This document shows, piece by piece, positions 3,030 through 21,534 of a stretch of DNA of 21,609 bases. Both the position numbers and the translations under genes were made by a program. Origin of the DNA: Nostoc sp. ChiQUE01b (GTDB lineage: Bacteria; Cyanobacteriota; Cyanobacteriia; Cyanobacteriales; Nostocaceae); the NCBI RefSeq assembly GCF_034531255.1, contig NZ_JAVRBM010000030.1, forward strand, positions 8,047 to 29,655. Reading direction: 5' to 3'. The notes beneath the pieces are model-generated. The model worked only from the letters and a program-made list of their open reading frames with translations. It did not search any database and was not told the origin of the DNA. Position 1 is the stretch's first letter; each line of letters begins with the position of its first letter.

Positions 3030-3063
3030 AAGGGGCTACATTAGCTTTTTTCTAAAGCCCCTT
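3030..3063. terminator. Hairpin between convergent genes (candidate bidirectional terminator)
   Basis: AAGGGGCT (3030-3037) and AGCCCCTT (3056-3063) form a perfect 8-bp stem around an 18-nt T-rich loop. The 3' arm overlaps the stop codon of the 3062..9007 gene. There is no clear U-tract after the stem on either strand. Confidence 0.35.
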
Positions 3064-6000
3064 ATCGCTGTTTCAACGCTGAAATCTCCTGCATGAATTG
3101 CACACCAGAATGTTCAGCCAGCTTGAGAAAATGCTCTACATCTTTCTCCCGCACTGTTGTCCGCTCAAGGCTATCGCCGTTGACTTGCAATATTGTCTCT
3201 GCTTTGCTGCCTGTTCGTGCTTGCACTGTCAGTTTGTCCCCTTGCTGCGTGCATTCATAGCGCCCATGCTTCAGGCTAACCCCGCCCCAGATGTCCAATT
3301 GCGCCTCTGTTGCCAGCAAGAGCTGCACCGTCTCCAATAATACCTGTCCCCGTTCCTGGTACGGGCGATACTTCGCCAAATCTCCTTCAATAATGTTTTG
3401 AAGATAGCGCGATAGGGGTGCGGACTCCTGGGCATTCTCCAACGTTTGCATGTGATGTCTACGTTCTGATTCCAGTCCCAAGTCACGAACTGCTTGGAGC
3501 CAGGTTTGTATGCTGAGGGCATCAGATGCTTCCGCATTCTCTTCGTTAGCTTCTGGCAGAGAATTTTCAGGGATAGTTTCACTCTGCGACGATATGCTGA
3601 ATGTTAAGGCAAGTGCAGGATTTTCGAGAGATTGTTCCTCACTATCTGTGAAGGTAAACTCCCTCTCTCCCCTGGTTTGTGAATTTAGGGATAACTGCTT
3701 CCGCATCGCCTCCCCAAATCCTTGATGCAGCAGGTTTCTGGAAAACGTGGTGGCATAAGAGCGATCGCAGTTTCGCCATTCCCTACCCAACGAAGTGACG
3801 GCTGTTTCAGCCAGGGTTAAGCCGCCATCCGTGTCGATGGTGAAAATCATCTCACTATTAATAAAAGTATCGCCGTTCTCGGTCAGATAATGCGTCAGGT
3901 ATAACCGATCATCATGCCGCTCGATGACCAGGGGGATAAACGGCTCATTCTCGATTTTGTGATGAAACTCTTCTCCCTTCATCACCGTCGAAGATAATCC
4001 CCCTCGTTCCAGCAGTTTGGCGATATTCTTCTCTGGCGTACCCCGTTGTGCCGCAGGAGGAGTGATCGCTGACGGCAGCTTGTTCACCGAATCAGTGCTG
4101 ATACCTGACTCCATATCTGGTTCAGGAACAGGAGAAGGAGTTTCAGGGACAGCTACAGGCATTTCAGCCACTTCAGCAAACGTCCCCAACGCTATCCCCA
4201 GCATCGCCCGTGCTGCTTCCCTCTGCTCATAGGCAGCCAGCGCATAATCCCGCTCTCGCATCACGAACGCCAGCACCGCTTCCAGTGCCTCTCCATCCAC
4301 CAGACATTCCATGCGATCGCCCACCGAATAAAACTCCGCTCCAGCAGCTTCTAGCAATTCCTCATCCAGATAATATTTACCGCCAGCATCTTTCGCTTTC
4401 GGTGTTTGTAGCAGGAAGGTTCCCCCCTGCCCTAGCTTGATGGTCAAGTGCTTATCCGCCGTTTTAAGCTGTCCGCCCTGTTCTGTCAGGAATCGCCACG
4501 CATCCTCAACGGTTGGCATGGTCACGCCCATTTGCTCCAGGGCAGCTTCGGCATCAAACCCCCGCGAGGTCAACAAGCCCTGACGAATGTTACCGTGGGC
4601 ATCCGTAAAATTGACCATCTTGCCGGGAAACTTCTCCCACGCCCGCAGCAGGTTCCCCGTGAACATCTGCCGTTTCTCCCGCGTCCGCGTTTGGTAATAG
4701 TCGAACAGATCGTAAACCGCTGTTCCCTCTGGCGTTTTATCAGTCCCTTCCACACGAACCGCATTCTCTTTGCCCGTGTTCACCTGCGACAGCGGCAGGG
4801 ATAGCTCCTGCACGGAATCTGCCAGCAACAACCGTATCTCCCAGGAGGACGGCGCAACAGGGTTGGCAGCAACACCCGTATGGTTTACACCCGCCACCAC
4901 CCCATAAAACACATCGTTTTTCTCGGTCGTCAGACACACCGCCTGCCCCACTGTCAACGCCTGCATCATATGCGTCACCTGATAAAACTGGTTATCAATG
5001 GTGGAGCTTCTGTCAGCCGGGACTTGCAATTTATACTGCCTTGCCTGCTCCTCAAGTGCTTCGATATCCGCCTTGACTTGCTCACAGGAGGCTTGCTGAA
5101 TGCTGCTTTGTGTCGCATCAGTTACCGTATCGGGCGGCGATAATCCTAAAGAGTCATGCAGCTTTTGCACCACCATTAGCGTTGTGTAGGGCTTGCGCGG
5201 CGTTTTCACATCAACAATTTCCGCATACACCGCCCCTGTAAACGGTGAATGACTGTTGGCATCGCTAGGCAACACCTCCATCCGTGCCAAGGTTTTAGCA
5301 TCGAGGTTGAGGGTGCTGGCTTCCAGAATCGATTCGCCCATTGCCTCCTGTGTCGCTACGAACTCCGTATATTTTTTCTCAATCAGGTCGTAAAGGGCTG
5401 ACTGCTCGGCAATAGGTAACAGGGGAATCCTGCCCGTCACCTTGCGGATTGAATCACCAGCGGATAAAGTGCCATGTAAAGGGTTGTGTGATGCTTGCAG
5501 TGGGTAATCAAGTCTTTCGTGAATATCAGGGTAAGCTTTCATCAGTTCGATGATTACCCGATCGCCGTACTCATTCATAAAATCCGGTACATTCTCCAAT
5601 GAAAACGCCCCAGACCGGGCGGCTGTGGTATTGGCATTGAGCGATGCCATCTTCCGCGCCAGCACTGCTCCCGGACGCTTTTCCGCTGGGATGTCTGCCA
5701 TCAGCAGTGTGAAATTGGGTGGCACAACCTGCCCAGTACGATGCACCCGCCCTAACATTTGCATGAACGAATTAATATCTGCTTCGGGTTGCGCCACAAT
5801 CATGTGCCGCTGCCGTTGGTCACGAAACCGCTCTGAGGCATGAAGCGAAATCCCTGTGGAACCAGAGCGGTTGAGCAGAATCACGTCAAGCTGTCCATCG
5901 TTAAAAGCGTTAACCGTCCGCACTGCCGCTTCTTTGCTACGCTCTGCGTTGCCGCGTCGCTGGTAAACCGTTGTGCCATCAGCGTTGTAGAGCGCGATAT

Positions 6001-9195: not shown

Positions 9196-9579
9196 TCAAG
9201 GCAAAGTTGGATGAATCATGCCATTTGCTGCAAGACTGTTAGCAATCCAATAAACACCTGTGTGATGAAATTTTCCTTGTTCTGCTAATTGTTGAACTTC
9301 TGCAATAATCACATCACAGTCTTCATCGCTTAATACAGCCCCATAAACACCACAGTCTCGACGGACAAAATCACGGGTTACATAATCAATCTCTCTCCTA
9401 TCAGTAATATTGATGACTGAATATAATTCATCAATTTCTGCTGAAGAAAGAGGAGAAACATTTATAAAATGGTCAGGAAATATTTCTGCCATATCCATAT
9501 TCTCTGCTTGTTGTTGAAACAACCGTAAAGACGCAAGGATGGTGGCTATTTCCCTTTTACGAAGTTGGTTTGTATTCAT
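9196..9579 (-). CDS. Hypothetical protein (127 aa from the internal ATG)
   Basis: The track ORF is 9196..9669. ATG at 9579 (MNTNQLRKRE..) is preceded by GAGGCGAGG and avoids overlap with the upstream gene. I recognised no family. Confidence 0.55.
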   Translation of the reverse strand: MNTNQLRKREIATILASLRLFQQQAENMDMAEIFPDHFINVSPLSSAEIDELYSVINITDRREIDYVTRDFVRRDCGVYGAVLSDEDCDVIIAEVQQLAEQGKFHHTGVYWIANSLAANGMIHPTLP

Positions 9580-9604
9580 TGTGAAAACCTCGCCTCGATA
9601 TTTT

Positions 9605-9850
9605 TCAAAAAGGAACATCGAGTGCTGACAGCAGCGCAAAGCACTCATCAAAAGAGCCAAAAAACACATTGTCTGCTTGATAACCCTCGATTATTTTTAA
9701 GACTTTCTCTTCCGTTTGGATGAGCGAGAAAACCTCTTTTTCATCAGTGTCATCAACATCAGGCATTTCATAGCTGCAAGCGGGACATTCTATGGGAGAA
9801 TCCGCTAAATCAAATTCATGTCTACAAAAAGGACATATCATGGCATTCAA
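9605..9850 (-). CDS. Small zinc-ribbon protein (81 aa)
   Basis: The N-terminus has CPFC..(13 aa)..CPAC, followed by an acidic tail. It is co-oriented and tightly packed with its neighbours, and overlaps the upstream gene by 29 nt. Confidence 0.55.
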   Translation of the reverse strand: MNAMICPFCRHEFDLADSPIECPACSYEMPDVDDTDEKEVFSLIQTEEKVLKIIEGYQADNVFFGSFDECFALLSALDVPF

Positions 9851-10241
9851 AAAGGTTTAATTGTCTGCTTGAAATCTCCTGTGGATGCTCCTTCTCGATA
9901 GCGTCATAGGCTAACGTCAGGCTGATAATCATGTCGTTCCACCATGCGGGAGGGGTTTTTGTGGTTTTGACCTCTTCCACATAGAAATTGATATGCTCAA
10001 AAGATGCCAATAAAGCTGTATAACAATCAAAAGCCAGATGGTTTAAACGCTCTATAATACGTCTTTTGGTCGCTGCTTTTGCTGTTATCCAATAAATACT
10101 ATGCCAGGTGTCATCGTATTGTTTGGCATAAGAAATGGCTAAGGCTAGTTGCTCTTTAGCAGAGGTAATAAAGGTATTATCATCCTCTAATTCTTTCAAT
10201 TGATCGAGAGCGCAAGCCATACAACAATAAGAAGAGTGCAT
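9822..10241 (-). CDS. Hypothetical helical protein (139 aa)
   Basis: The ORF is the second gene of a four-gene minus-strand cluster. I recognised no family. Confidence 0.5.
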   Translation of the reverse strand: MHSSYCCMACALDQLKELEDDNTFITSAKEQLALAISYAKQYDDTWHSIYWITAKAATKRRIIERLNHLAFDCYTALLASFEHINFYVEEVKTTKTPPAWWNDMIISLTLAYDAIEKEHPQEISSRQLNLFECHDMSFL

Positions 10242-10262
10242 TTTGAACGTCTCCTCTTCTCA

Positions 10263-10715
10263 TCAAGAAAAATTAGTCTTGTCCTCCCTTAAAACTTCTT
10301 CCAGTGCCCGTTTAACTGCTGTCTCATGGTCTGGAAGCTGTTTTTTGATAAGAGAGATAACCCACTGTGTTCCTTTCCCTCTTCCAGTGAGTTGAATTGA
10401 TGAATCAATAACGCCAACGTCTTGAAGATGAGAGGCAACTTTCCTGGCTTTTTCAAGGGTTAAATGCCTGACAGTTTCTATGGCATCAGGTTGAATATGT
10501 CCAGCATTAGGTATTTCCTGAACGTCTTTTTCTTCTTCGGTTCTTATTTCGGCTTCCTGTGGTTTTTTAACAGGTTCAACAAAGGACACGGGTTTTTGTA
10601 CTGTTGAAATGGCAGAACCAGCAGAAGCAGGCGTATAAAAAAGCCAGCAGTAGAACGAAAAAATAATTACAAAAAGTTCTACAGCGAAGCCAGAACCAGT
10701 TTCGATATGTGACAT
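10263..10715 (-). CDS. Hypothetical membrane-anchored protein (150 aa from the internal ATG)
   Basis: ATG at 10715 is preceded by GAGGAA. The hydrophobic segment FAVELFVIIFSFYCWLFYTPA looks like one N-terminal transmembrane helix, followed by a charged linker and a C-terminal globular part. The track ORF extends to 10742. Confidence 0.55.
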   Translation of the reverse strand: MSHIETGSGFAVELFVIIFSFYCWLFYTPASAGSAISTVQKPVSFVEPVKKPQEAEIRTEEEKDVQEIPNAGHIQPDAIETVRHLTLEKARKVASHLQDVGVIDSSIQLTGRGKGTQWVISLIKKQLPDHETAVKRALEEVLREDKTNFS

Positions 10716-10796
10716 GGTGCATTCCTCAATATTTTGAATCACGATACTGAAGCGATGAAAACAAAATTGAACCCAAAATATCGTGTTATTGGGTAT

Positions 10797-10830
10797 GAAA
10801 AAATAACTGTCTGCAATAGAAGGCAGACAG
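10797..10830 (-). terminator. Intrinsic-terminator-like hairpin on the minus strand, upstream of the small-gene cluster
   Basis: CTGTCTGC (10807-10814) and GCAGACAG (10823-10830) form a perfect 8-bp stem with an 8-nt loop. On the minus strand the stem is followed by TTATTTTTTC (complement of 10806-10797). Confidence 0.4.
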
Positions 10831-11108
10831 AGTACGCTGAAAAAGAATCAAGCGAATTTTAAGAAACTGTGCGCTTATTTAATGAGAAATACAATTTCTG
10901 ATTAACACAAATAAATCTTGATATTTTTATCTCTTAGTTGAATGGTATTTATGATATATTTCTGCTTTCTTAGGTATAGAAAACGGAGCAATAATTTTAT
11001 CTTTTCTTCTTTGGCTTTTTGTGGTTTTTTCGTGAGCAGTTCTGCCTATCAGGAGTCAGTTTGCCCACGAAAATAACTCCTCTTCCTGTCCTGCTTCAAC
11101 AGGTGAGA

Positions 11109-11930
11109 ATGCTTCGGAAAAAAATTGTCCAGCTTGAGGCGGAAGGGTTGTGTCTGTTCGGCGCATGGTTGGAAAAGAACCGTCCAGGCAGTGTCCGAAG
11201 CCGCAGGCAGGTGTACTGGCAGCTTCGTTGCCGCACGGGCACATTACCCAATCGCAAGCAGTTGATGCATCTGGACAAAGAACAAGTCCCTATCTACCAA
11301 CAGGCAATTGCGAGAGGCAGGAAGATAAAGGCTTGCCAGCGACAGATACGGGATACCGAGCGTCGCATAGAAAGGCTGGTAGCGCGAGCCGAGCAACGCG
11401 GGATTGTGGTGCGTAATGTGTTGGGCGACCCCGATGCTTCGCCAGAATGGTACACACCTCCTGGCTATATTTCCCTTGTCCGCCAAGTGTTAGGGCATAT
11501 TGACCTTGACCCTGCAAGCAACAGCATGGCACAGGCGTGGATTCAGGCAGATGTTTACTACACGAAACAAGATGACGGTTTGCGGCAGCCGTGGTTTGGG
11601 CGCGTCTGGTGCAACCCACCCTACGGCAGTCCCGAAACCCGCTTGATGGCGCAACAGTTTCTGGAGAAAGCGATCGCGGCATATCAGGATGGTATGGTTG
11701 TGGCGGTAATCCTGCTCCTCAACCGCACAGGGGCAGCATGGTACAAGACTTTGCAACAACAGGTCACTGCTCTGTGCGAAGTGACGAAGCGGATAGCTTT
11801 CTTAGATGAAAATGGCGTACCCCAACCATCGCCCCGTTACTACAGCGACTTTTTATACCTGGGTCAAGAGCCAGAGCGGTTTCTGGATATCTTTAGCAGC
11901 ATTGGCACGGTACGGCAACTTGCACCCTAA
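11109..11930 (+). CDS. Phage-type DNA N6-adenine methyltransferase (Dam family, PF05869-like) with an N-terminal extension of about 95 aa
   Basis: The sequence PEWYTPPGYISLVRQVLGHIDLDPASN..DGLRQPWFGRVWCNPPYG..VILLLNRTGAAWY..KRIAFLD matches the EWYTP / DLDP / NPPY / R-x-x-F layout of this family. ATG 11109 is preceded by AGGTGAGA. The track start, TTG 11019, is an alternative. Confidence 0.8.
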   Translation: MLRKKIVQLEAEGLCLFGAWLEKNRPGSVRSRRQVYWQLRCRTGTLPNRKQLMHLDKEQVPIYQQAIARGRKIKACQRQIRDTERRIERLVARAEQRGIVVRNVLGDPDASPEWYTPPGYISLVRQVLGHIDLDPASNSMAQAWIQADVYYTKQDDGLRQPWFGRVWCNPPYGSPETRLMAQQFLEKAIAAYQDGMVVAVILLLNRTGAAWYKTLQQQVTALCEVTKRIAFLDENGVPQPSPRYYSDFLYLGQEPERFLDIFSSIGTVRQLAP

Positions 11931-12005
11931 TTTTTAAACGCCCTCTCCCACACTCTTAAAGAAAAGGGTGAAAATAGGGCGCGGACAGCCGCGCAAGAAT
12001 GGATG

Positions 12006-12164
12006 TGCCAGAGGCGCGGGCTGGGTCAAGGACAAGCCCTGCGGGTGCGCGGGGGGTCTCCCCAATTTTTTGCTTTCAGTATGTGACAAACACCGTGTCG
12101 CAAAAAACCGGGAGATACCCCTCCCCCCGCGCATCCTTGACCCAACCCTTCATCGCCCCTGGCA
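12006..12164 (-). other. Extended imperfect GC-rich hairpin (candidate single-strand initiation, single-strand promoter or secondary oriT-like element)
   Basis: The nested complementary arms are:
- 12006-12016 with 12154-12164 (10 of 11 bp).
- 12022-12032 with 12134-12144 (11 of 11 bp).
- 12046-12056 with 12123-12133 (11 of 11 bp).
- 12058-12062 with 12110-12114 (5 of 5 bp).
- 12066-12073 with 12100-12107 (8 of 8 bp).
Only the left arm has a bulge, 13 nt at 12033-12045. The element lies in the 276-nt non-coding spacer directly upstream of ardA. Confidence 0.6.
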
Positions 12165-12206
12165 AGCACAGAAGCATGAGCGAGAAAAAAAGAAAGGAAC
12201 TTAGCC

Positions 12207-12749
12207 ATGCTGAAGACGAAAAACAATAACAAAGCAGACCCGCAAATCTACATAGCTTGCCTTGCTGCTTATAATGCAGGGTATCTGCATGGGGAATGGG
12301 TGGATGCTACCCAGGATATTGACATCATCAGGAAAGAGATTAGCAGAATTCTAGAAACGTCTCCCGTAGCAGATGCTGAAGAGTACGCGATCCATGATTA
12401 TGATGAATTCTACAGTGCAGAGAGCATACTAGGCGAATATCCCAACCTTGAAGAAGTGGTTAAAGCCGCTGAATTTATTGCCGAACATGGAGAATTAGCC
12501 GGAAAGCTAATTGCTCACTATGGTGATCTTACGGAAGCCCTCGAAGCAATGGAAGAACGTTATCACGGGTGTTACCGAAGCCTAGCCGACTATGCTGAAC
12601 AATTCACTGAAGATACCTCAAGTGACATCCCTAAGCACCTGCAATACTACATCGACTACAAAAAAATGGCGCGGGACTGGGAATATAGCGGCGACATTTT
12701 CACCATAGAACTGGGTTTTGAAGAAGTCCACGTTTTTTCAAATCACTAA
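12207..12749 (+). CDS. ardA: Antirestriction protein ArdA (DNA-mimic inhibitor of type I restriction)
   Basis: The sequence PQIYIACLAAYNAGYLHGEWVD..EEYAIHDYDEF..YYIDYKKMARDW..VHVF matches the ArdA (PF07275) signature. AAAGGAA lies upstream of the ATG. The protein is acidic. Confidence 0.85.
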   Translation: MLKTKNNNKADPQIYIACLAAYNAGYLHGEWVDATQDIDIIRKEISRILETSPVADAEEYAIHDYDEFYSAESILGEYPNLEEVVKAAEFIAEHGELAGKLIAHYGDLTEALEAMEERYHGCYRSLADYAEQFTEDTSSDIPKHLQYYIDYKKMARDWEYSGDIFTIELGFEEVHVFSNH

Positions 12750-12828
12750 CAAGAATGGGGCTGCCAATCACCACAACCGCAGCCCCACCTCCTAAACATC
12801 ACTACAAATTTTTAGGAAGTCTCCACAC

Positions 12829-13311
12829 ATGAAAACCTTTCCCAATTTTCAGACCTATAAAATGTTTCGCCTGTCCAATTTTGGCATGAGAACCGCCCGT
12901 TATGCCTTCAGCCGAATGAAAGCAGAACAGACTATAACAGCATTACCCTATCCCACTGCATCACTGGAGCATAACACTTGCTTTGTATGGAAAGGATTTA
13001 CCATTCACATTCAGGTTTTTTATGACGAGGATGCAGATTACTCCTGGCTTGGTCAATTCTCCGACACGCCAAAAGAAGATGCTATTCCCCATGAGCCAGG
13101 AAACCACCGTACCTACAATTATTTCAACCGAGCTTGCACGATTACTGAGTATCAAGAAGAGTACAGCCGATTGGGGTATGCACAGCATGAAAGCTGGCTT
13201 TTAGCTAAAAAAGCAGTGCAAGAAGACTACAAGCGGATGCTTCACTATAACGAATCTGGAAGCCCCTACATTGAATTAACGGCAAGCAAAGAGAACATCA
13301 CCCCTTGGTGA
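12829..13311 (+). CDS. Hypothetical protein, apparently split by a frameshift (the coding signal continues in another frame to 13432)
   Basis: The 160-aa ORF has AGGAAG upstream of the ATG. After TGA 13309-13311, the frame shifted by +1 stays open from 13280 to TAA 13430-13432. That frame reads GEATISIADWDYVQETIIDDDLVEAAIADAEQNLKQLCTCL and has no start codon of its own. Confidence 0.55.
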   Translation: MKTFPNFQTYKMFRLSNFGMRTARYAFSRMKAEQTITALPYPTASLEHNTCFVWKGFTIHIQVFYDEDADYSWLGQFSDTPKEDAIPHEPGNHRTYNYFNRACTITEYQEEYSRLGYAQHESWLLAKKAVQEDYKRMLHYNESGSPYIELTASKENITPW

Positions 13312-13474
13312 AGCGACTATCAGCATTGCTGATTGGGATTACGTGCAAGAGACAATTATTGATGACGACCTGGTTGAAGCAGCGATCGCTGACGCTGAAC
13401 AGAATTTGAAACAGCTTTGTACCTGTTTGTAATGAAATCAATTTTCCATGACTTTTATCTAAAGGAATCCTAAA

Positions 13475-13807
13475 ATGACTAAAATCACCTCCCCCACCAA
13501 ACGTGAAATCCTGGAACAAGAAATTTTATCTGTTTTCAGAACATTTGACAGCAACGCTTCTCCCCTGCTGGTCAAAGAGATTGCCGAATGCGCCATAAAC
13601 TTCTTTTATGACCCGGATAAAGCTATAGCAATTGTTTGGAGTATAGAAGATATAAATGCTATCCGAGAAGACCTTAATGATGAACAAGCATTTATGGTTT
13701 TGGAAGATGCCTATAACAATTATGTCGAAGATAGTCCTATAACGTGGAAAGTTTTGAAATTCGTAGCTGATGATTTGTTTCCACGGGAAGAAGCAGAAGA
13801 AACATGA
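13475..13807 (+). CDS. Small, strongly acidic hypothetical protein (110 aa)
   Basis: AAAGGAA lies upstream of the ATG. By my count there are about 24 D/E against 10 K/R. I recognised no family. Confidence 0.6.
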   Translation: MTKITSPTKREILEQEILSVFRTFDSNASPLLVKEIAECAINFFYDPDKAIAIVWSIEDINAIREDLNDEQAFMVLEDAYNNYVEDSPITWKVLKFVADDLFPREEAEET

Positions 13808-13930
13808 AACGCTTTTACCGCAGCAAGTTTTTTAGAACCTACCAAGAAGTATTTCAGGCAACACCTGATGATGTAGAATTTGATGCTTTGATAAATTATT
13901 AATTCTAATAATATTAAAAAGGATAGCCTT

Positions 13931-14431
13931 ATGACTTTAACTCATAAACCCTTCTCAGTACAAATATTTTTAATTGATGCAAACCCCGATGGAATGCTAA
14001 CAGCCGAAATTCCATTTCAATGGACAGGTCATGTGTTATCTTTTCCAAGAAAAGACATCAAACGAGTTTTGGAACGTGAAGAAGCCCAGCAGCCTGGCAT
14101 TTATCTATTGGTTGGGGAGAGAGAAGAACAAAAAACACTTTATGTAGGTAAGGGCGGTGAACTCTTAGAGCATATTAAAGAGCAAGAACAACAAGAATGG
14201 TGGTCAACGGGGGTATTGTTGATCAATCAAGAATATCCCTTGAGTATGTTGTATCTATCCTACCTACAAGACCAACTTAGAAAAAAAGCAGAGAACGGAA
14301 ACAAGGTTATTTTAGCTAACCCTCTTGACGTTGAACCATTAAGACTAGACGAGTCGGCAACGGTTGCAATGGAAGGATTTTTAGATAAATTTATCTTTGT
14401 CCTTTTGGTATTAAACTTTAAATTCTTTTAG
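13931..14431 (+). CDS. GIY-YIG-like N-terminal module protein, truncated (the usual C-terminal DUF4357 part is missing)
   Basis: The sequence FSVQIFLIDANPDGMLTAEIPFQWTGHVLSFPRKDI..PGIYLLVGE..TLYVGKG..WW..YLSYLQDQL..MEGFLDKFIFVLLVLNF follows the layout of the family that is normally about 290 aa with a DUF4357 C-terminus. Here the ORF stops right after the ..VL..F segment. Confidence 0.55.
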   Translation: MTLTHKPFSVQIFLIDANPDGMLTAEIPFQWTGHVLSFPRKDIKRVLEREEAQQPGIYLLVGEREEQKTLYVGKGGELLEHIKEQEQQEWWSTGVLLINQEYPLSMLYLSYLQDQLRKKAENGNKVILANPLDVEPLRLDESATVAMEGFLDKFIFVLLVLNFKFF

Positions 14432-14469
14432 AAACTGAATCATTAATTGACTATAAAAATTTTCATTTC

Positions 14470-14512
14470 AAGGCTGTTCCATCACCGGAGTAGCCTTTTG
14501 TGTTTCTTCTTT
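14470..14512 (+). terminator. Candidate intrinsic terminator for the plus-strand block
   Basis: AAGGCTGTTCC (14470-14480) pairs with GGAGTAGCCTT (14487-14497) at 9 of 11 positions. The stem is followed by TTGTGTTTCTTCTTTGTGATTTTT. It lies between convergent genes. Confidence 0.45.
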
Positions 14513-14555
14513 GTGATTTTTAGCGCACACCACGATCAACCACAGCTATGAAGAA

Positions 14556-15200
14556 TCATTCTTCCTGCTCTTCCTGTATCATCATCTCGTTATCGTGATT
14601 TGTATGACAGGTTATCTTCAGCCCACCCACCCCCATGACATTTGACCCGCATTTCGAGCAAGTGTATTTAAAACGGGTTTTGGTACGAGCTTGCCAAGTG
14701 TAATGGTGCTGGAGTGGAAAAAATTTCTCTTGGGCTTTGGGACAGGCCAGAGCATATTTTCCATTCTCGATAATTGTGTGTTTGACGTGCTGCCCAAACA
14801 TTTTTTCACAGGACAGCCCCATCTCCGCCATTTTCAATGTCCATTCCTTGTTACAATACCCTGGATGTTCTGGAGGCGTGCCATACGTATACTGCCATAA
14901 ACAAATCATCTGGCGTACTAGTATTTGAAAAATCAGGTCATCCCCACGCTTGAGCAGTTCAGGGTTCAAGCTAATTTCATCAACAGTAACGGAACTACCC
15001 CGATTCCAGCTTTTGTAGCGAAAGAAGCCTAGAGATTTACCTCTGGCATTGAAGTTCAGGATGCAAGGGGGAAGAATGCCATCGAACAACACCCTATTGA
15101 AGTAGTCGAAGGCATCCTGGTAACTGAGCCACAATTCCAGATGCGGTTTGGTGAAAAGAGGTGTGCCTGTAGCTACGGGCAGGGTTGGTATTGCTTGCAT
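14556..15200 (-). CDS. SprT-like domain protein with the metalloprotease motif lost
   Basis: The sequence FDYFNRVLFDGILPPCILNF..LGFF..ISLNP..ILVRQMICLWQ..GYCNKEWTLKMAEMGL..YTCSKCGSNVMGVGGLKITC is colinear with plasmid SprT-like proteins (..LVHEMVHLWQ..GYHNKEW..YxCxCG..WGKP). VRQMIC (14918-14901) stands where VHEMVH is expected. Confidence 0.75.
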   Translation of the reverse strand: MQAIPTLPVATGTPLFTKPHLELWLSYQDAFDYFNRVLFDGILPPCILNFNARGKSLGFFRYKSWNRGSSVTVDEISLNPELLKRGDDLIFQILVRQMICLWQYTYGTPPEHPGYCNKEWTLKMAEMGLSCEKMFGQHVKHTIIENGKYALACPKAQEKFFPLQHHYTWQARTKTRFKYTCSKCGSNVMGVGGLKITCHTNHDNEMMIQEEQEE

Positions 15201-15359
15201 GTCTGTGCTTCCCTGATTGATGTTACTTGATTGCCAAACCAGGGACTTTTTGTATGCTGTATCACAGCCTACTTCAGTGAATAGTTTTATACAGGGTAAG
15301 GCAATGAAGTTTCTTCCAAAAAGTTATCAGTCTTTTTTCTCTTGCTTAAATAAAATTTT

Positions 15360-15376
15360 TTACATAAATTATGTAA
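15360..15376. promoter_or_regulatory. 17-bp perfect palindrome (candidate operator)
   Basis: The sequence is TTACATAA-A-TTATGTAA. It lies in the AT-rich spacer between the TraD-like gene and the SprT-like gene. Confidence 0.35.
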
Positions 15377-15498
15377 AATCCAACTTGTATCCGTTTCGCC
15401 ACAAATTAACAGAATTATGGTGTACACCATAAAAACAGAAAGCGGATACCTCTCCCCCAATGGTTTCTTCTTTCCTTCGCAGTAAAATTTCTTTCCTT

Positions 15499-16152
15499 TT
15501 AAATCCCCTCAAACATCTCTTTCATTTTGTCCTGGGATATTTCGGTTAGAGTTTTAGGCTTATCTGCAACTGGCTGTTTAGAAATAACTTGCATCGTCTC
15601 TTGGGTTTCTGATTCCTGCTCCACACGCTGAGGTGTTACCTTCTGCTGTTGTGCTGCCCTGTCCCTTATGTCCTGATTTTCTGTTTTCTCCTCCCGTAAT
15701 CCGTCCTCACTTGCCAGTGTCTGAAGTGCCTCCTGGTAGTATTGGGCCTCCTCCTGCTGGCGTTTAACTGAGTTGGTGCTGTGCTGTCCTTTCTTCCCGT
15801 TAGTCTGTTCATCTTGAAATTGCCGGGGTTGGGTCGTAGTTGCAGACACAGACAGTGTTTTCTTCTCTGGTGTTACTGTCTCGCGGGGAGGAAGTCCAAA
15901 CAGATCGCGATCGCGGTCAATGAGGTACTGGTCTAATCCCTGCATTACCATGTCTTCAGTTAGCCACCCCCATTCCACCATCTTGTCGAGCAGGGCACCC
16001 TTGATGAACTTGCGGCGATTTTCGAGGCTGCGTTCTGCTTTCTGGACTTTGTGTTCTTGTTTACGTTCAGCACGTTTTTCCTGCTTGAGTTTTTCGCTAT
16101 AGTGGCTAAGAAGTTCATTGAGACGGTCAATGCGTTTGGCGCGGCTAGGCAT
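15499..16152 (-). CDS. Ti-plasmid TraD-like relaxosome accessory protein
   Basis: An N-terminal coiled-coil is followed by ENRRKFIKGALLDKMVEWGWLTEDMVMQGLDQYLIDRDRDLFGLPP. This matches the TraD (PF06412-like) pattern RKRDTRRKIllGAavl....L..dR.LFGL. The gene is divergent from the relaxase gene across the predicted oriT. The C-terminal half is Q/E-rich and low in complexity. Confidence 0.6.
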   Translation of the reverse strand: MPSRAKRIDRLNELLSHYSEKLKQEKRAERKQEHKVQKAERSLENRRKFIKGALLDKMVEWGWLTEDMVMQGLDQYLIDRDRDLFGLPPRETVTPEKKTLSVSATTTQPRQFQDEQTNGKKGQHSTNSVKRQQEEAQYYQEALQTLASEDGLREEKTENQDIRDRAAQQQKVTPQRVEQESETQETMQVISKQPVADKPKTLTEISQDKMKEMFEGI

Positions 16153-16289
16153 GAGGTGAGTCCTCCCGAAACAAGCGGCAGACGATGTATTTTTGATGAT
16201 GAACGGAGAATTACCGCGTTACGAAAACCACACGGTAGGGGACAGTTTGTTTTTTCCCAACAATAATTAGTGCGGTCAAAGAAAAGCGC

Positions 16290-16340
16290 GGCTGCCGCTG
16301 TGGTTGCGCGGACACGCGCTGGGGTTTGGGGGCGGCAGCC
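16290..16340. repeat. 9-bp inverted repeat on the leading side of the predicted nick
   Basis: GGCTGCCGC (16290-16298) pairs with GCGGCAGCC (16332-16340). The loop contains the small hairpin GCGCG-GACA-CGCGC (16306-16319). Confidence 0.6.
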
Positions 16341-16422
16341 TCCAAGCGCAGTTATACATTAAGGGACGCTTCGCTTTGAAAAGCTACCTCGCAAGCTCGG
16401 CATCTTTTCAACCCTTAATGTA
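16341..16422 (-). other. Predicted oriT core: inverted repeat plus a nick region like that of MOBQ-family (RSF1010/R1162-type) relaxases
   Basis: The outer repeat is a perfect 11 bp (16355-16365 / 16412-16422) and the inner repeat is 8 bp (16376-16383 / 16404-16411). On the minus strand the repeat is followed at once by TAACTGCGCTTGG, compared with TAAGTGCGCCCT in R1162/RSF1010. The element sits about 145 nt upstream of the relaxase gene and in the same relative orientation as in RSF1010. Confidence 0.6.
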
Positions 16423-16565
16423 CTGCGGCAAAGGGGGTTCCCCTCTGCACACCCCAACCACAGGGCGACTATTTGTATGTAACATAGTCGTAACACGTCT
16501 GTAGATTGTTTGTTGTAATTCGTTAAAATTTAGGAAAATTCCCACCCATTGGTGAATGAAATGGG

Positions 16566-19500
16566 GTGATAACAGTGCAAGCAGGGTATTTTCGGGAAGA
16601 AGTAAAAATTGTTTCACGCGGTAATAACCAGAACGTCATTCGCAAAGCTGCCTATGATGCAGGGGTACGACTGGTCGATACGCGGGACGGAAAAGTGTAT
16701 GACTTTTCTAACAAGCGGGATGTGTATAGTACTGAAATTCTCGCCCCCGCGAATGCTCCTGACTGGATGCTGGATCGGTCAAAACTGTGGAACGGTGTTG
16801 AACAAACAGAAGACAAATCCCGTCGCCGCGAGGATGCCCAGCTAGCACGGGAAGTGATTTTGTGTTTCCCGGCCTGCCTCAGCCATGATGAGAAAATCGC
16901 CGCTGCCCGTGAGTATGTGCAAAGCGAGTTTGTCTGGAAGGGCATGGTGGCAGATGTGGCGTACCATTTCAACGGCAAGACTGCCCATAACCCGCATGTC
17001 CATGTTCTCCTGACGATGCGCGATATTGATGGTAAGGGTTTTGGCAAAAAGAATCGCTCGTGGAACAACCCGGCAGAATGGAAAGACCGGGGCGAAAACA
17101 TTGAAGGGTGGCGCAAACGGTGGGCAGATACCCTCAACAAACACCTGGAGCGGGGTGGGTACGATGTACGGGTAGACCATCGCGGCAATCTGGCACAGAA
17201 TACTGACCGCCTGCCCCAAGTTCATGAAGGAGCCAATGTCACCAACCTGCGCCGTCGTCATGCCCAAAACCCGGACAAATATCAACAGAATTTTGATAAC
17301 AACCAGGTCATCCAGCACAACGAAGACATCAAGCACCGTAACGCCGAGCGGGAAGAATTGAAACAAACGATCAAAGCGTTGCAGTCAGAACTTCGCCACG
17401 AACACATCAAGCAAGCGCATTACGAGCAACGCCGGGAAGAACGTATTCTGAAACGGCAGATGCTGTCAGCGGAAAAAACTACCGAGCAAGACAACAGTCC
17501 TTATACTCTTGACCGTACCAGAACCTACGAAACAGCGACCAGCGTTGCCACCACCCTCACCCGGCAACTGCCAGCCTCGGAGTTTCATCAGCGAGCAAAC
17601 GCGCTTGTCACTTCTACCATGCAACACGATTCTTCTTCCACGCAAAATCCCTCTGCCATCCAGATTCGCAAAGATGACCCACCGGGCTGGAAACCGCGCA
17701 GACGCGAACCAAATGAGCCAACCGACTGGACATGGCGACTGGTACGCGAGCAACTGGAAGCAATGGGCGGTGATGGGAATTTTGAGATTGGCATTCTTGA
17801 CCGTGCCAGCGAAAAGATGCAGAACAAGACTTGGCACAAGCATGACATTCTTCGGGTTGATCCAGAAACCAAACGCACGCCGATTCTGAATTACCTCAAA
17901 TACGAAAACAGCCAGGGCAAGGATATTTTTATCCGTCTTGCCCCAACCAAAGACAGTAAACAACAAGGCTTGGTGCTGATTGATGATATCGACCCGGTAA
18001 CGGTGGAAGACCTGAAGGACAAGGGACTTGCCCCTGCCGTAGTCATCGAAACCTCATACAAGAATTGTCAAGCCTGGATACGGGCATCCAAAGAACCCAT
18101 CGAACGAGAAACTGCCACCCACCTGGCGAAACTGTTGACCAGAGAAGCGGGTGGCGACCCTGGTAGTGCTTCTTACCAGCATTACGGGCGGCTAGCTGGC
18201 TTCACGAACCGGAAACCTGACCATCAGGATATGTACACAGGCAGGCATCCGTATGTAAAACTGCTGTCAGCTTACGGAACAACCGCCCCAGAGGGGGAAC
18301 AGTGGCTGGCACAGGCGCAGTCAGCCGCAGCGATCGCACGGGAGAAACAACAAGAGGCAGCCGCCCTGCGTGACCAACGTGGCAACAGGGAAGCAACTGA
18401 ACAGGAGAAAGAGAAAGCCCTCAGAGCGTTCGAGAGCAGCTATGCTCATGCCTTGCGCCACTATGGCACAAACAAGGATTACAGCGCACGGGACTGGGCA
18501 CTGACCAAAAATCTTGCCAAACTGGGCTATAGTCAGGATGCCCTCCAGTACGCCCTGCGCTGGGGCAGTCCCGATCTGGAGAAGCGGAAACCGGGACATG
18601 AAGATGATTATGTCGCTCGCACGGTTGCCAAAGTGTTTGAGCATCCAGAGGTATTGCAGGCGATCGCTGAACGGGAAGCCAGACGAAAGAAACGAGAACA
18701 GGAGAATCAGCGCCAGCAACCATTACCCCTGACACAACCCACAGAAAAACAAAATCCTACAGAACCGCCATTCCCCTCCCCTACTCCCACACCATCATCG
18801 TCACAGGCAAAGGAGCAAACTGCTGTACCAGAACAATCCTTGACCGAAGACGAACGCCAGCTTATCGAAGCCATGAAATGGCTGAATGATGGCAAGGAAC
18901 GAGGTAAGCAGGAGCGGCGGCCGGAACACCATCTTCCTGTCCGTCCTCCTGCCAATGACAAACAATCCTATGCTGATAGAGCAGAGCCAGCAACCCCGAT
19001 GCCGGATACAGGGGAGAAAGTTTCATTGGACGCAGAGGCAGAGATCGTCAACACCTTCCCCACCCCTGCTTCATCCGACCAAAACCCCTCCTCGAAAGGG
19101 TCAGCCAAAGTTCCCGTGTACTGGAACAGTTATTATCGCTGGCTCCAGACACAGCAAATCGTCCGCCAGCCCAAACCTGCCAGAATTGACCCCGGTACTG
19201 CCTCCGCCAAACGACCCCCTGTCCCCATCAAAGCAGAACCCGTCGGCGACCTCGACGCTGACAGCGTTGCTGCCATCATTAATGCCGCGCACCAGTCGAA
19301 AAATGCGACCCAGCAACTTCGTACCGCCTCCTGGGCGTACCAGAACTTTAACCAGGACGAAGGACGCTGGAACAAGTGCAAACTGGAATATTTCCGGGAA
19401 CTGCACCGTGTTCACCAAGCCTTCGGACGTGATGAGGCATTAAACCCGAAAACTGATATCGAAATCGCCCTTAAGCTGCGGATGGCGGGGTTTTCCGTCA

Positions 19501-19865
19501 CGCAGATTTACCGCACTATCCAGGAAGCCAGCCCGGTTGCAACATCCCTACCGTCGCAAGAACATCAGTTTGTGTACTTGAAAAAAGCGATCCAACCCTA
19601 TCTGCAATCCTCCCAAACCCGGACAGTCGCCAATAATTTTCAGTACGAGCGGGAACGGCAGGCAAAGAGAACCATCACAGACCCCACCCAATTGCAAAAC
19701 CATCTTGCTGAACGCCGCCTGGAAAAACTCGGACTGGCAACCCCTGTGTCAACCCAAACCCAAAATCCAACACCCCAACAGACGCGATCGCCCCAGCCAC
19801 AACCTAACCATCGACCATCCCCTTTACCCCAGCACAAGCGTGATGATTGCGAGCCAGAGCGGTAA
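16566..19865 (+). CDS. MOBQ-family relaxase (MobA/MobL, TraA-like) fused to a RepB'-type primase domain, with a Pro/Gln-rich C-terminal region
   Basis: - Relaxase: SRGNNQNVIRKAAYDAG (Tyr codon at 16653-16655), LWNGVEQTE, DAQLAREVI, and the His triad HNPHVHVLLT (16986-17003).
- Primase-like segment, about 17750-18340: GKDIFIRLAP..GLVLIDDID..APAVVIETSYKNCQAWI..GGDPGSASYQHYGRLAGFTNRKP.
- Start: GTG 16566 or GTG 16575, the latter with GGGGTGA upstream. Confidence 0.9.
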   Translation: MITVQAGYFREEVKIVSRGNNQNVIRKAAYDAGVRLVDTRDGKVYDFSNKRDVYSTEILAPANAPDWMLDRSKLWNGVEQTEDKSRRREDAQLAREVILCFPACLSHDEKIAAAREYVQSEFVWKGMVADVAYHFNGKTAHNPHVHVLLTMRDIDGKGFGKKNRSWNNPAEWKDRGENIEGWRKRWADTLNKHLERGGYDVRVDHRGNLAQNTDRLPQVHEGANVTNLRRRHAQNPDKYQQNFDNNQVIQHNEDIKHRNAEREELKQTIKALQSELRHEHIKQAHYEQRREERILKRQMLSAEKTTEQDNSPYTLDRTRTYETATSVATTLTRQLPASEFHQRANALVTSTMQHDSSSTQNPSAIQIRKDDPPGWKPRRREPNEPTDWTWRLVREQLEAMGGDGNFEIGILDRASEKMQNKTWHKHDILRVDPETKRTPILNYLKYENSQGKDIFIRLAPTKDSKQQGLVLIDDIDPVTVEDLKDKGLAPAVVIETSYKNCQAWIRASKEPIERETATHLAKLLTREAGGDPGSASYQHYGRLAGFTNRKPDHQDMYTGRHPYVKLLSAYGTTAPEGEQWLAQAQSAAAIAREKQQEAAALRDQRGNREATEQEKEKALRAFESSYAHALRHYGTNKDYSARDWALTKNLAKLGYSQDALQYALRWGSPDLEKRKPGHEDDYVARTVAKVFEHPEVLQAIAEREARRKKREQENQRQQPLPLTQPTEKQNPTEPPFPSPTPTPSSSQAKEQTAVPEQSLTEDERQLIEAMKWLNDGKERGKQERRPEHHLPVRPPANDKQSYADRAEPATPMPDTGEKVSLDAEAEIVNTFPTPASSDQNPSSKGSAKVPVYWNSYYRWLQTQQIVRQPKPARIDPGTASAKRPPVPIKAEPVGDLDADSVAAIINAAHQSKNATQQLRTASWAYQNFNQDEGRWNKCKLEYFRELHRVHQAFGRDEALNPKTDIEIALKLRMAGFSVTQIYRTIQEASPVATSLPSQEHQFVYLKKAIQPYLQSSQTRTVANNFQYERERQAKRTITDPTQLQNHLAERRLEKLGLATPVSTQTQNPTPQQTRSPQPQPNHRPSPLPQHKRDDCEPER

Positions 19866-20098: not shown

Positions 20099-20306
20099 AA
20101 CACAGCCAGATCAAACTTCGTGATCAAAACCTGTCTCCTGCCCTGCCAGGGACGATGGAGCATTGCCAGTATTGTTCTAGCTTATAAAATAAAAACTATC
20201 CGCTAGAACAAGGTCGTCGAAAATGCGTCAATAATCTTGAAAACCCTTTAGTTGTTGAAAGTGGGTAACACTTGGGGAAACAATCTCAAATTTTGACGAA
20301 AAAGAT

Positions 20307-20341
20307 AAAGCCCTGTGTTGGCGAAAACCAGACGGGGCTTT
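20307..20341. promoter_or_regulatory. Stem-loop in the repA leader (attenuator, or terminator of a minus-strand countertranscript)
   Basis: AAAGCCCTG (20307-20315) pairs with CGGGGCTTT (20333-20341), 9 bp including one G-T pair. The stem is followed by ATCGTTTTG on the plus strand and by ATCTTTTTCG on the minus strand. It lies 33 nt upstream of the repA ATG. Confidence 0.4.
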
Positions 20342-20373
20342 ATCGTTTTGCTCTAAAAGTACGGAGACCTTCA

Positions 20374-21534
20374 ATGGAGCGGAAATCCGGCATCGTCAAG
20401 AGGATTCAGCAGGCATCACAAGCGATCGCTCAAGCACCCCCCACCTTGGCGGAACTGGCGTTTACACCAAGAGAACTGGTGCAGGCTACCCTGCCCCATC
20501 GTGATCCAGGGAATGTGCCTGTATGGGTAAGACGAAATGGGCAGTATGGCTTATCGATTCAGCCAGGATGGGACATCGCTAAAAACTGCTCGATTGGGTA
20601 TCCTTTTGGCACTCTTCCCAGGTTGTTAATGTTCTGGCTGACGGCAGAGGCTGTAAGAACAAATAATAAACTGATTAAGTTAGGAGAAAGCCATACACAT
20701 TTTTTGAAAGGATTAGGATTAGACCCTGACAGAGGCGGAAAATGCAGCGATTCTTTTCGCGTTAAAAACCAGTGGCTACGATTAACCAATGCAAAAATAT
20801 CATTTCAATATTGGGGAAATTTTAACGGTAAACAACATCAATCTTTTTTAAATTTAGCTATTGCTGAACGTTCTGTTGTGTGGTGGGAAGAAAAAGGAAA
20901 GGGACGTTTAGAAGAAGAGGGAGGATTTATTGAACTTACGGACAGGTTTTTCCAAGCCATAACACAAAGTCCCATTCCTTTAGATTTTAGAGCATTACAA
21001 GCGATTAAAAATTCACCGTTAGCGATTGATGTCTACTCATGGGCTACGTTACGCGCCTATGCGGCTCAACAGAAAGATAAGCCCCATACTGTTGCCTGGG
21101 AGGTACTGCTAAATCAATTTGGCAGTGATTATCGAGACGTGAAAGACTTTAAAAGATACTTCAAATTAGCCTTGGAGAAGGTTCAATGCGTTTATCCCTG
21201 GCTTCAATTTGAGTATATTAAAGGTGGTATTACTATTAAACCAAGCTCTCCCTCTGTTAGTTACAGGTCTTTAAAGAAAAATTCTAAATTGATAACCGCA
21301 GAAACGTCAGAGAAGGCACTGCTGACTTCAAAGAGTAATCACGAACTAAATCTTTGTGTTTCTTCTAAAGCATTTGAAGAAGCGGTATTTCTCATTACTA
21401 ATGCAGACACAGGCTGGTGCAAATACGCTTTAGAGAAACAGTTCTATGACTATGCCCGAAAGAAGGGCATCCCCAAAAATGTTGATAAAGCGTTTCTGGG
21501 CTTTGTGAGAAAAAAGGTCACGCAAAAACCTTAA
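20374..21534 (+). CDS. repA: Plasmid replication initiator, RepA_C (PF04796-like) family
   Basis: The sequence FTPRELVQATLPHRDP..WVRRNG..GYPFGTLPRLLMFWLTAEAVRT..IKLGESHTHFLKGLGL..GG..ISF..FFQAI..PIPLDFRALQAIKNSPLAIDVYSWATLR..QFGSDY..FK..VYPWL matches the family layout. ATG 20374 is preceded by GGAGA. The track start at 20272 is a TTG upstream of the leader hairpin and is less likely. Confidence 0.85.
   Translation: MERKSGIVKRIQQASQAIAQAPPTLAELAFTPRELVQATLPHRDPGNVPVWVRRNGQYGLSIQPGWDIAKNCSIGYPFGTLPRLLMFWLTAEAVRTNNKLIKLGESHTHFLKGLGLDPDRGGKCSDSFRVKNQWLRLTNAKISFQYWGNFNGKQHQSFLNLAIAERSVVWWEEKGKGRLEEEGGFIELTDRFFQAITQSPIPLDFRALQAIKNSPLAIDVYSWATLRAYAAQQKDKPHTVAWEVLLNQFGSDYRDVKDFKRYFKLALEKVQCVYPWLQFEYIKGGITIKPSSPSVSYRSLKKNSKLITAETSEKALLTSKSNHELNLCVSSKAFEEAVFLITNADTGWCKYALEKQFYDYARKKGIPKNVDKAFLGFVRKKVTQKP

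Follow-up and report, generated by a model that had tools for sequence, protein, structure and literature searches.

Positions 11109-16346 of a 21.6-kb stretch of plasmid DNA from Nostoc sp. ChiQUE01b (contig NZ_JAVRBM010000030.1; the whole stretch that was analysed is referred to as the window) probably constitute the leading region of a mobilisable plasmid of the MOBQ type, in which an ardA operon would be driven by a hairpin formed on the incoming single strand. The region is located next to a predicted origin of transfer (oriT), and it is very probably the first DNA to reach a new cell during conjugation. It holds an island of five plus-strand genes, among which are a Dam-like methyltransferase gene and the anti-restriction gene ardA, and the hairpin lies between these two.

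In the proposed mechanism, the relaxase would nick the minus strand at TAACTGCG|C (16347|16346), and the nicked strand would enter the recipient 5'-first and leftward, bringing in mobC, an open reading frame (ORF) with an SprT-like product and then the plus-strand block in reverse gene order. The incoming single strand of 12006-12164 would fold into a long imperfect hairpin and thus recreate a promoter-like stretch of double-stranded DNA. This stem holds a TTGAC similar to a -35 element and its base falls where a -10 would be expected, so that host RNA polymerase could transcribe ardA before the complementary strand is made. Read-through would probably continue over the ORFs at 12829, 13475 and 13931 up to the terminator-like hairpin at 14470-14497, and ArdA would block type I restriction while the plasmid turns double-stranded. 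The gene encoding the Dam-like methylase would need a promoter of its own, because it is located upstream of the hairpin.

A hairpin family with a fixed orientation relative to oriT

When the DNA was folded in sliding windows, two segments stood out: oriT, at -55 kcal/mol per 200 nt, and the spacer of 276 nt that separates ardA from the Dam-like gene, at -52 kcal/mol; no other part of the 21.6 kb went below -38 kcal/mol. Within this spacer there is an imperfect hairpin of about 160 nt (12006-12164, a side hairpin included), and the minus strand of 12000-12175 folds at -53 kcal/mol (z = -6.9). For comparison we used related loci, labelled L003 (the Calothrix sp. 336/3 plasmid NZ_CP011383), and L005-L014 (L009 is from Brasilonema and L014 is a more distant metagenomic contig), as well as the IncQ1 plasmid L004. 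Homologous copies of the hairpin were found with BLAST and nhmmer in every related plasmid lineage, 14 in 8 lineages: four in L013, three in L005, two in L009 and one each in the window, L003, L010, L011 and L012. The 13 intact copies scored 134-203 bits with nhmmer in the forward direction and at most 31 bits in reverse; the remaining copy, one of the three in L005, is split and scored 80 + 53 bits.

The sequence-only reading that preceded this analysis had proposed to compare orientations relative to oriT in related plasmids. For the hairpin cassettes the outcome is clear-cut: all 14 are located on the mobC side, which is the predicted leading side, at 3.4-9.7 kb from the nick site (nic) and in a single orientation relative to the oriT core. 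This polarity is kept despite the inversion of the SprT-like gene, the inversion or replacement of the relaxase gene and the reshuffling of cargo among the lineages. The alignment of the copies runs past the stem and includes a small covarying leader hairpin, a purine-rich Shine-Dalgarno sequence and an aligned ATG. The genes that start behind the copies encode ArdA (once, in the window), ArdC (three times), an N6_N4 DNA methylase (twice), a DUF6876 protein (once) and members of two families without a known function, of about 205 (five times) and about 122 amino acids (twice). Such a mix of ArdA-, ArdC- and methylase-type genes is the repertoire that has been reported for leading regions (PMC11541004).

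With a GC content of 58% the hairpin element is richer in GC than its surroundings; the single-stranded-DNA (ssDNA) promoters of F have likewise been reported to be GC-rich (PMC13478746). The stem holds the -35-like TTGAC, the TTG of which is invariant in both arms, and about 16-17 bp past this motif the stem ends at a conserved CAT.

In one of the copies (L005, 3075-3458) the apical loop is interrupted by a palindromic insertion of about 140 nt (CCTTTCAAGGGTAGGG...CCCTACCCTTGAAAG) that resembles a small miniature inverted-repeat transposable element (MITE). That the hairpin family itself is a MITE-like selfish repeat was ruled out: all copies are fused to a Shine-Dalgarno sequence and an ATG, they share one polarity relative to oriT and none occurs elsewhere in the approximately 250 kb of loci.

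Covariation was evaluated on an alignment of the 13 copies, with slid pairing partners and 500 shuffles as controls. In this alignment 90% of the cells are paired, both sides have changed in 25 of the 42 stem pairs, and the covariation score is 0.383, as compared to at most 0.116 for the slid controls; none of the 500 shuffles reached the observed values. The mismatched cells are distributed very unevenly: in plus-strand coordinates there are 27 A·C and only 3 G·T cells, over about 15 and 3 column pairs, respectively. An A·C on the plus strand is a G·T wobble on the minus strand, and the minus-strand fold is the more stable one in all 13 copies, by 3.5-14.5 kcal/mol. We used F as a benchmark, where the four strongest hairpin windows of the leading region, all just upstream of leading genes, favour the transferred strand by 5-12 kcal/mol. 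Since the minus-strand bias agrees with the independent argument from oriT given below, the structure appears to have been selected on the transferred strand.

These observations bear directly on a more conventional explanation, in which the element is an ordinary double-stranded promoter with a 5'-leader, or an RNA regulator (an antisense RNA or an attenuator), that has spread by recombination and acts without any ssDNA step. The fixed distance to the start codons, the TTGAC motif, the small leader hairpin and the modular placement before unrelated genes would all suit it. A double-stranded promoter, however, has no need of a 160-nt stem that is kept by compensatory changes, and in double-stranded form the element offers only a poor -10 (TGGCAA or TGGCTT). 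An RNA structure in the 5'-untranslated region is disfavoured because the wobble pairs form on the minus strand and the mRNA corresponds to the other strand, and neither variant calls for the restriction of all copies to one side of oriT in one orientation. We consider this explanation rather improbable.

The main rival holds that the hairpins are single-strand initiation (ssi) sites, primed on the incoming strand by the RepB-type primase that is fused to the relaxase or by host factors, or that they are replication roadblocks, and that the genes use ordinary promoters once the DNA is double-stranded. The relaxase does carry RepB_primase domains, the MobA protein of RSF1010 is likewise primase-bearing, and in R1162/RSF1010 the primase acts in the recipient. 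The structure on the transferred strand, the restriction to the leading side and the fixed orientation fit a priming site equally well. Yet every copy is followed, at a constant spacing, by a leader, a Shine-Dalgarno sequence and the ATG of differing genes, which priming does not require, and no copy is found in the window near repA or a likely oriV, where the primase would be expected to act. The ssiA and ssiB sites of RSF1010, moreover, measure some 40 nt and the element described here is much longer. All in all this rival seems unlikely. It does have precedents, as Frpo also primes DNA synthesis (PMC12672017) and the ssp2 promoter acts as a roadblock (PMC13478746), and the roles of primer site and promoter could coexist, as they do in Frpo.

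Origin of transfer and predicted polarity

The nic of RSF1010 has been mapped, and the substrate used in biochemical work has an inverted repeat and then TAAGTGCG/CCCTCCC (PMC4814116). On the minus strand of the window, positions 16354-16342 read TAACTGCG|CTTGG with the junction at 16347|16346, and 7 of 8 bases agree with TAAGTGCG/CCCT. The motif follows an inverted-repeat arm (CCCTTAATGT-A-TAACTGCG|CTTGG) at the spacing that is typical of MOBQ, with the core about 8 nt past the repeat. The repeat is a nested one, with outer arms ACATTAAGGG...CCCTTAATGT and an inner hairpin TTGAAAAG/CTTTTCAA, and the region also holds a conserved block GGGG..CCCCTCTG.AC.CCCCAA. Of all 200-nt windows of the 21.6 kb, those of this region and of the spacer before ardA are the most strongly structured.

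The nic-like core AGCGCAGTTA(T/C)ACATT is found, exactly or with one mismatch, in 8 related Nostocales plasmid lineages. A 15-mer, AGCGCAGTTATACAT, is present without change in L003, L005-8 and L011 and with one mismatch in L009, L010, L012 and L013, and in every locus it adjoins a mobC homologue. The arms of the inverted repeat covary across the lineages (ACATTAAGGG/CCCTTAATGT, ACATTCGA/TCGAATGT, ACATTGC/GCAATGT and ACATTAGC/GCTAATGT), and folding of the minus strand is favoured in 7 of the 8 oriTs. A scan of viral contigs with the oriT pattern gave 0 matches, and blastn searches of PLSDB with the oriT and with the hairpin returned only spurious short matches or the Calothrix record itself.

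The surrounding genes point to the same type of mobilisation system. In Pfam searches the relaxase matched MobA_MobL (PF03389, E 3e-59), RepB_primase (E 6e-20) and RepB_primase_C (E 1.5e-20); its nearest annotated matches are MobQ and Ti-type TraA relaxases, the closest being the MobQ of the Calothrix sp. 336/3 plasmid (50% identity). The ORF next to oriT was not detected as MobC in a Pfam search; in BLASTP it showed 45% identity over 60 residues to the RSF1010-type MobC (E 2e-12), and its homologues adjoin oriT in all related loci. In the IncQ1 plasmid L004, drawn with the nicked strand on top, mobC is located 3' of the nick on that strand and mobA/repB 5' of it on the other strand, and the window has the same layout as RSF1010, with the MobC-like ORF 3' of the predicted nick (minus strand) and the relaxase gene 5' (plus strand). 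The mobilisation module is predicted to be of the RSF1010-like MOBQ type, with site- and strand-specific nicking and mobilisation.

The SprT-like ORF has homologues (43-46% identity) that adjoin mobC in L003 and L005-13 and are inverted relative to oriT in half of the lineages. Its product matches phrog_6361 and carries a C-terminal Cys-rich ribbon, and in all four aligned members the HExxH motif of the SprT-like scaffold is replaced by VRQM or VRCM (VRQM in the window); Pfam, NCBIfam and PDB sequence searches of the family found nothing. A side observation on the relaxase is that stand-alone ORFs homologous to its residues ~886-1080 (the C-terminal domain past the primase) occur in L005 (9132-9665) and L012 (11885-12511), directly beside oriT, and in L009 (2973-3545), about 11 kb away on the leading side.

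We have considerable confidence in the prediction that the nick is on the minus strand, as the sequence-only reading had it; agreement with the RSF1010 nic, the conservation of the core and the position of the MobC homologue all fit it. With this polarity the minus strand would enter leftward from 16346, and the five plus-strand genes would be templated by the entering strand and point at oriT. The relaxase gene and repA, located across oriT from the island, would enter last, which agrees with what had been proposed.

Several observations weigh against the reading set out above, and the first of these concern the strand itself. The oriT is palindromic (GCGCAGT...ACTGCGC, window 16346-16430), and right of the repeat the plus strand has a second, less conserved nic-like motif, ACTGCG(C/G)C; in L005 and L012 this copy reads TAACTGCG|CC and is as good as the left one. 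Because of the mirrored copy, the strand of the nick is something that we infer, and both features would suit a plus-strand nick right of the repeat (…AATGTACTGCG|GC…), with which the relaxase gene and repA would enter first and the ardA block would lag behind. The right-hand motif, however, varies in sequence (T/C, C/G/T) and in spacing to the repeat (6-8 nt) with no compensating change on the left, whereas the left-hand core GCGCAGTTA(T/C)ACATT is invariant across the 8 lineages. The layout of RSF1010, where the nicked strand carries mobC on the 3' side of the nick, and the better folding of both the hairpin family and oriT as minus strand also speak for the left-hand site, and we regard the opposite polarity as very improbable.

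The other points of this kind relate to the hairpin and the genes. No convincing -10 hexamer was found in the alignment, by eye or with a sigma-70 consensus scan, and there is no TATAAT-like hexamer; the hairpin copies share ancestry, so that fewer independent events lie behind them than the numbers of copies and cells suggest. A block of five co-oriented genes is by itself not beyond chance, and the weight of the orientation argument is carried by the cross-lineage comparison. On crude ORF calls the bias across lineages is weak: within the leading 10 kb the transferred strand is the template of 64 of 96 ORFs, as compared to 18 of 35 on the other side. The MobC-like and SprT-like genes, located on the minus strand between the island and oriT, would be the first to enter and are not templated by the transferred strand. 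We looked for a hairpin cassette or another large hairpin upstream of the Dam-like gene and found none (the upstream fold has a z of only -2.9), a homologue of this gene in L005-7 is located on the other side of oriT, and the ORF at 12829 is broken in the window plasmid.

Genes of the island and their surroundings

The features of the window are listed in Table 1. The five island genes (ORFs 3-7 when counted from nic) were confirmed by the ORF listing to have the coordinates, strands and direction toward oriT that the sequence-only reading had given them, and the assignments of the Dam-like methyltransferase and of ArdA were borne out by Pfam.

Table 1. Features of the window: feature, positions, strand and supporting evidence
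WD40-like repeat gene	249-1649	+	ORF listing and Pfam
Methylase/Sno-type helicase/DUF6908 protein, 1981 amino acids	3062-9007	-	ORF listing and Pfam
Three small ORFs without a known function	9196-10742	-	ORF listing
Dam-like orphan N6-adenine methyltransferase	11109-11930	+	Pfam PF05869, E 3e-13
Hairpin cassette, conserved	12002-12206	-	DNA fold, 14 copies in 8 lineages, covariation
ardA	12207-12749	+	Pfam PF07275, E 5e-42
Frameshifted ORF, family of ~200 amino acids	12829-13432	+	Three-frame translation, intact homologues
Acidic ORF, 110 amino acids	13475-13807	+	ORF listing, pI 4.15
ORF of 166 amino acids, homologue of the N-terminal half of PDC-S14	13931-14431	+	PADLOC, phrog
Terminator-like hairpin	14470-14497	+	Consensus scan: 11-bp stem, then T-rich tail
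SprT-like/zinc-ribbon ORF	14556-15200	-	Homologues adjoining mobC, phrog_6361
MobC-like relaxosome accessory gene	15499-16152	-	BLASTP against RSF1010-type MobC
Structured spacer holding oriT	16153-16565		DNA fold
Structured oriT region, nested inverted repeat	16286-16465		DNA fold, z = -6.8
oriT core, predicted nic between 16347 and 16346	16345-16359	-	Match to RSF1010 nic, conservation
MOBQ relaxase fused to RepB-type primase	16566-19865	+	Pfam
repA, RepA_C replication gene	20272-21534	+	Pfam

The Dam-like gene starts at an ATG within an ORF that opens at 11019. Its product scored 50.2 bits against PF05869 (cut-off 28.1), has an NPPY motif and also matched a PADLOC orphan methyltransferase and the DNA methyltransferase family phrog_111 (E 2e-30); against the NCBIfam phage equivalog it scored 33.7 bits, which is below the cut-off of 97 bits. 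It has an N-terminal extension of about 110 amino acids that is conserved and also found in L005-7. ArdA is full-length (positions 1-154 of the 155 of the Pfam profile), matches the anti-restriction family phrog_2059 and has the acidic composition of a DNA mimic (net charge -23, pI 4.47). It is thus, from its sequence, a member of a recognised anti-restriction family, for which inhibition of type I restriction is predicted. Just past the ardA stop codon, at 12759-12788, there is a hairpin with a GC-rich stem of 8 bp free of mismatches (GGGGCTGC...GCAGCCCC), a loop of 14 nt and no T-tail. Placed between ardA and the next ORF, it may stabilise the mRNA or act as an attenuator.

That next ORF runs from 12829 to 13311 and continues in the +1 frame up to 13432, the shift being near 13300. 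The same frameshift is present in an independent Logan contig and is real relative to the intact homologues of 199-200 amino acids (P0002, 75% identity; P0003, 61%); it may represent a pseudogene, an assembly error shared by both contigs or programmed frameshifting. The NCBI annotation of the locus gives a product of 149 amino acids only (P0001). Clustered at 50% identity, the family falls into about 320 groups, none of which has a Pfam domain, and its members are found next to ArdC in Brasilonema (L009) and to SSB and DUF6876 on an unrelated Rep3 plasmid contig (L029). An AF2 model of the family was unusable (predicted local distance difference test, pLDDT, of 39).

The family of the acidic ORF at 13475 is restricted to the Nostocales and very small, with 9 clusters in 5.8 billion proteins. 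Homologues with 35-48% identity were found in L005-8 (two in each, one of them right after the homologue of the 12829 ORF), L009, L012 and L013. Its AF2 model is a five-helix bundle (pLDDT 76) that had no significant fold match in PDB or BFVD; the best hit was to an uncharacterised protein of a phage, over 57 residues (E 7e-3). Neither for this family nor for that of 12829 did sequence searches of Pfam, NCBIfam and PDB find anything. The same domain makes up the C-terminal half of paralogues of 181-189 amino acids in L005 (4402-4947) and L012 (6204-6770), and the extra N-terminal domain of these has the motif QVRAMLHGSMFGW.TP.ADPDFY and no Pfam match.

The ORF at 13931, with a GIY-YIG-like motif (GIY...YVG), matched PADLOC PDLC04923 (PDC-S14; E 3.6e-40, profile positions 23-186 of 320) and phrog_12629 (E 6e-28, positions 6-170 of 303); it had no Pfam GIY-YIG match, and the full catalytic architecture of about 300 amino acids is not present. 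The sequence-only reading took it for a GIY-YIG-like fragment, which holds in so far as only the N-terminal half of PDC-S14 is matched. A homologue in L013 (8539-9051), however, has 170 amino acids and the same C-terminus and lacks the YVG motif, so the ORF is judged from its sequence to be a conserved short PDC-S14 homologue and not a recent truncation. The two copies differ in the second GIY-YIG motif, which suggests a non-catalytic role, possibly as a decoy of a host defence protein.

The prediction that the block is an early-expressed anti-defence island is supported by the sequence comparisons. The covarying minus-strand hairpin before ardA and the anti-defence genes behind the copies in related plasmids argue for it; early expression of the Dam-like gene is the least supported part, because the hairpin comes only after this gene, which lacks a cassette itself. 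The proposal that the ORFs at 12829 and 13475 are candidate anti-defence genes likewise finds support, as both families recur in such islands beside ArdC, SSB and DUF6876. The 13475 ORF is a candidate establishment or anti-defence gene; for the 12829 ORF the frameshift counts against the proposal.

The sequence of the window was reproduced by an independent Logan assembly that is identical across 19.4 kb. A megablast of 10500-17000 against PLSDB gave zero matches, a scan of the whole window at the Rfam gathering thresholds found no family, and no iterons were found near repA. A contig scan with the N-terminus of the relaxase led to a single short Crocosphaera contig, the flank of which was too small. 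The distant contig L014 encodes homologues of ArdA (2799-3320, 49% identity) and of the SprT-like protein (9820-10404, 38%); no MOBQ relaxase, oriT core or hairpin copy could be recognised in it, and it was not used for orientation.

The left part of the window holds two further genes of some interest. The WD40-like gene (window 1-1525) consists of about 12 tandem units of 126 nt (42 amino acids) with 85-88% DNA identity, and the array extends past the window start. The protein of 1981 amino acids combines an N6-adenine methylase motif (NPPF) with a Strawberry-notch-type helicase (AAA_34/Helicase_C_4) and DUF6908. Homologues with 62-64% identity occur in L009 (14640-20600) and L013 (12043-16536), where they directly follow oriT and occupy the place that the relaxase gene has in the window; in L005-7 the protein is reduced to a remnant of 111 amino acids with the N-terminus and C-terminus.

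Relation to known leading regions and significance

The best-known leading regions are those of the IncF and IncI1 plasmids (F, ColIb-P9 and pESBL, with their Frpo, ssi and ssp elements). As in the window, their genes are co-oriented toward oriT and templated by the transferred strand (according to the F annotation), anti-restriction genes and orphan methylases are part of the cargo, and GC-rich, long imperfect hairpins, several copies per plasmid, directly precede the starts of genes and fold more stably as the transferred strand (PMC11541004, PMC12672017, PMC13478746). There is no detectable relation in sequence: an nhmmer profile of the 13 copies had no match, at E values up to 10, in the 20 kb of the F leading region, where Frpo1 and Frpo2 are located. 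The host, moreover, is a cyanobacterium of the Nostocales, and the relaxase is a MOBQ protein with a fused primase, whereas the IncF and IncI1 plasmids are conjugative and of the MOBF and MOBP types; the window has no type IV secretion genes. The hairpin measures about 160 nt with its side hairpin, as compared to about 300 nt in those plasmids, and has no recognisable -10, and neither ssb nor psiB is present in the window.

With the anti-defence islands of Samuel et al. 2024 (PMC11541004) the block shares ArdA, a methyltransferase and small uncharacterised ORFs, all within the first ~10 ORFs and templated by the transferred strand. In contrast to those islands it is small, with five genes of which one is broken, and two oppositely oriented mobilisation genes separate it from nic. 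Judged by the side of oriT, the presence of anti-defence genes and their orientation, it would nevertheless belong to the leading-region anti-defence islands.

The mobilisation module resembles that of RSF1010/R1162 (IncQ, MOBQ1), which has a MobA_MobL relaxase fused to a RepB primase, a mobC that is divergent across oriT and an inverted repeat followed after about 8 nt by TAA(G/C)TGCG|C. With the RSF1010-type MobA/RepB region of L004, however, the relaxase shares only ~31-36% identity; the nested palindrome that forms the oriT is larger and contains a nic-like motif in mirror image, and the window has in addition a conserved SprT-like gene and a RepA_C replicon. No comparable leading island is present in L004, in which a resistance gene and a toxin-antitoxin gene come after mobC. 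The closest annotated relative, the Calothrix plasmid, has the same oriT core, the same arrangement of MobC and the SprT-like gene and one cassette in the same orientation, about 3.4 kb from nic and followed by small plus-strand ORFs; unlike in the window, this cassette precedes an N6_N4 methylase gene and not ardA, and none of the five island proteins is common to both plasmids.

Frpo has been known since 1997, anti-defence islands were described in 2024 and new classes of ssDNA promoters in pESBL and F in 2025 (PMC11541004, PMC12672017, PMC13478746). The field's experimental evidence for early expression from incoming ssDNA comes from enterobacterial IncF and IncI plasmids. In the later survey of leading regions 99% of the plasmids were from Enterobacterales, and six small mobilisable plasmid taxonomic units were dropped (PMC13478746). 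The word 'cyanobacteri' is absent from the main text of PMC11541004, and in our literature searches neither leading regions nor ssDNA promoters were linked to Nostoc or cyanobacterial plasmids in any paper. What is new here is an unrelated hairpin family in Cyanobacteria, on MOBQ relaxase-primase plasmids, together with comparative evidence (covariation, strand-specific wobble and strict polarity) that points to selection on the transferred strand and is unusually clean for work from sequence alone. It is possible, although we put this forward tentatively and with some doubt, that the cassette represents an undescribed class of ssDNA promoter that is specific to cyanobacteria, is not homologous to Frpo and controls an early regulon on the MOBQ plasmids of Nostocales.

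These results suggest that the same strategy evolved with an unrelated hairpin in another phylum, on mobilisable MOBQ plasmids, and they provide a candidate for the first cyanobacterial ssDNA promoter. The hairpin profile offers a sequence handle for leading regions and early genes in cyanobacterial plasmids, and the locus yields a short list of unannotated families as candidate anti-defence factors. If the cassette is indeed such a promoter, each gene driven by a cassette would be marked as an establishment or anti-defence factor, including the families of ~205 and ~122 amino acids and DUF6876 and, by their position in the operon, also the truncated PDC-S14 homologue and the families of the 12829 and 13475 ORFs. 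In that case the cassette could also serve for early expression when DNA is conjugated into cyanobacteria that are rich in restriction systems. In Anabaena and Nostoc, genetic manipulation is hindered chiefly by restriction, which would make anti-restriction factors useful.

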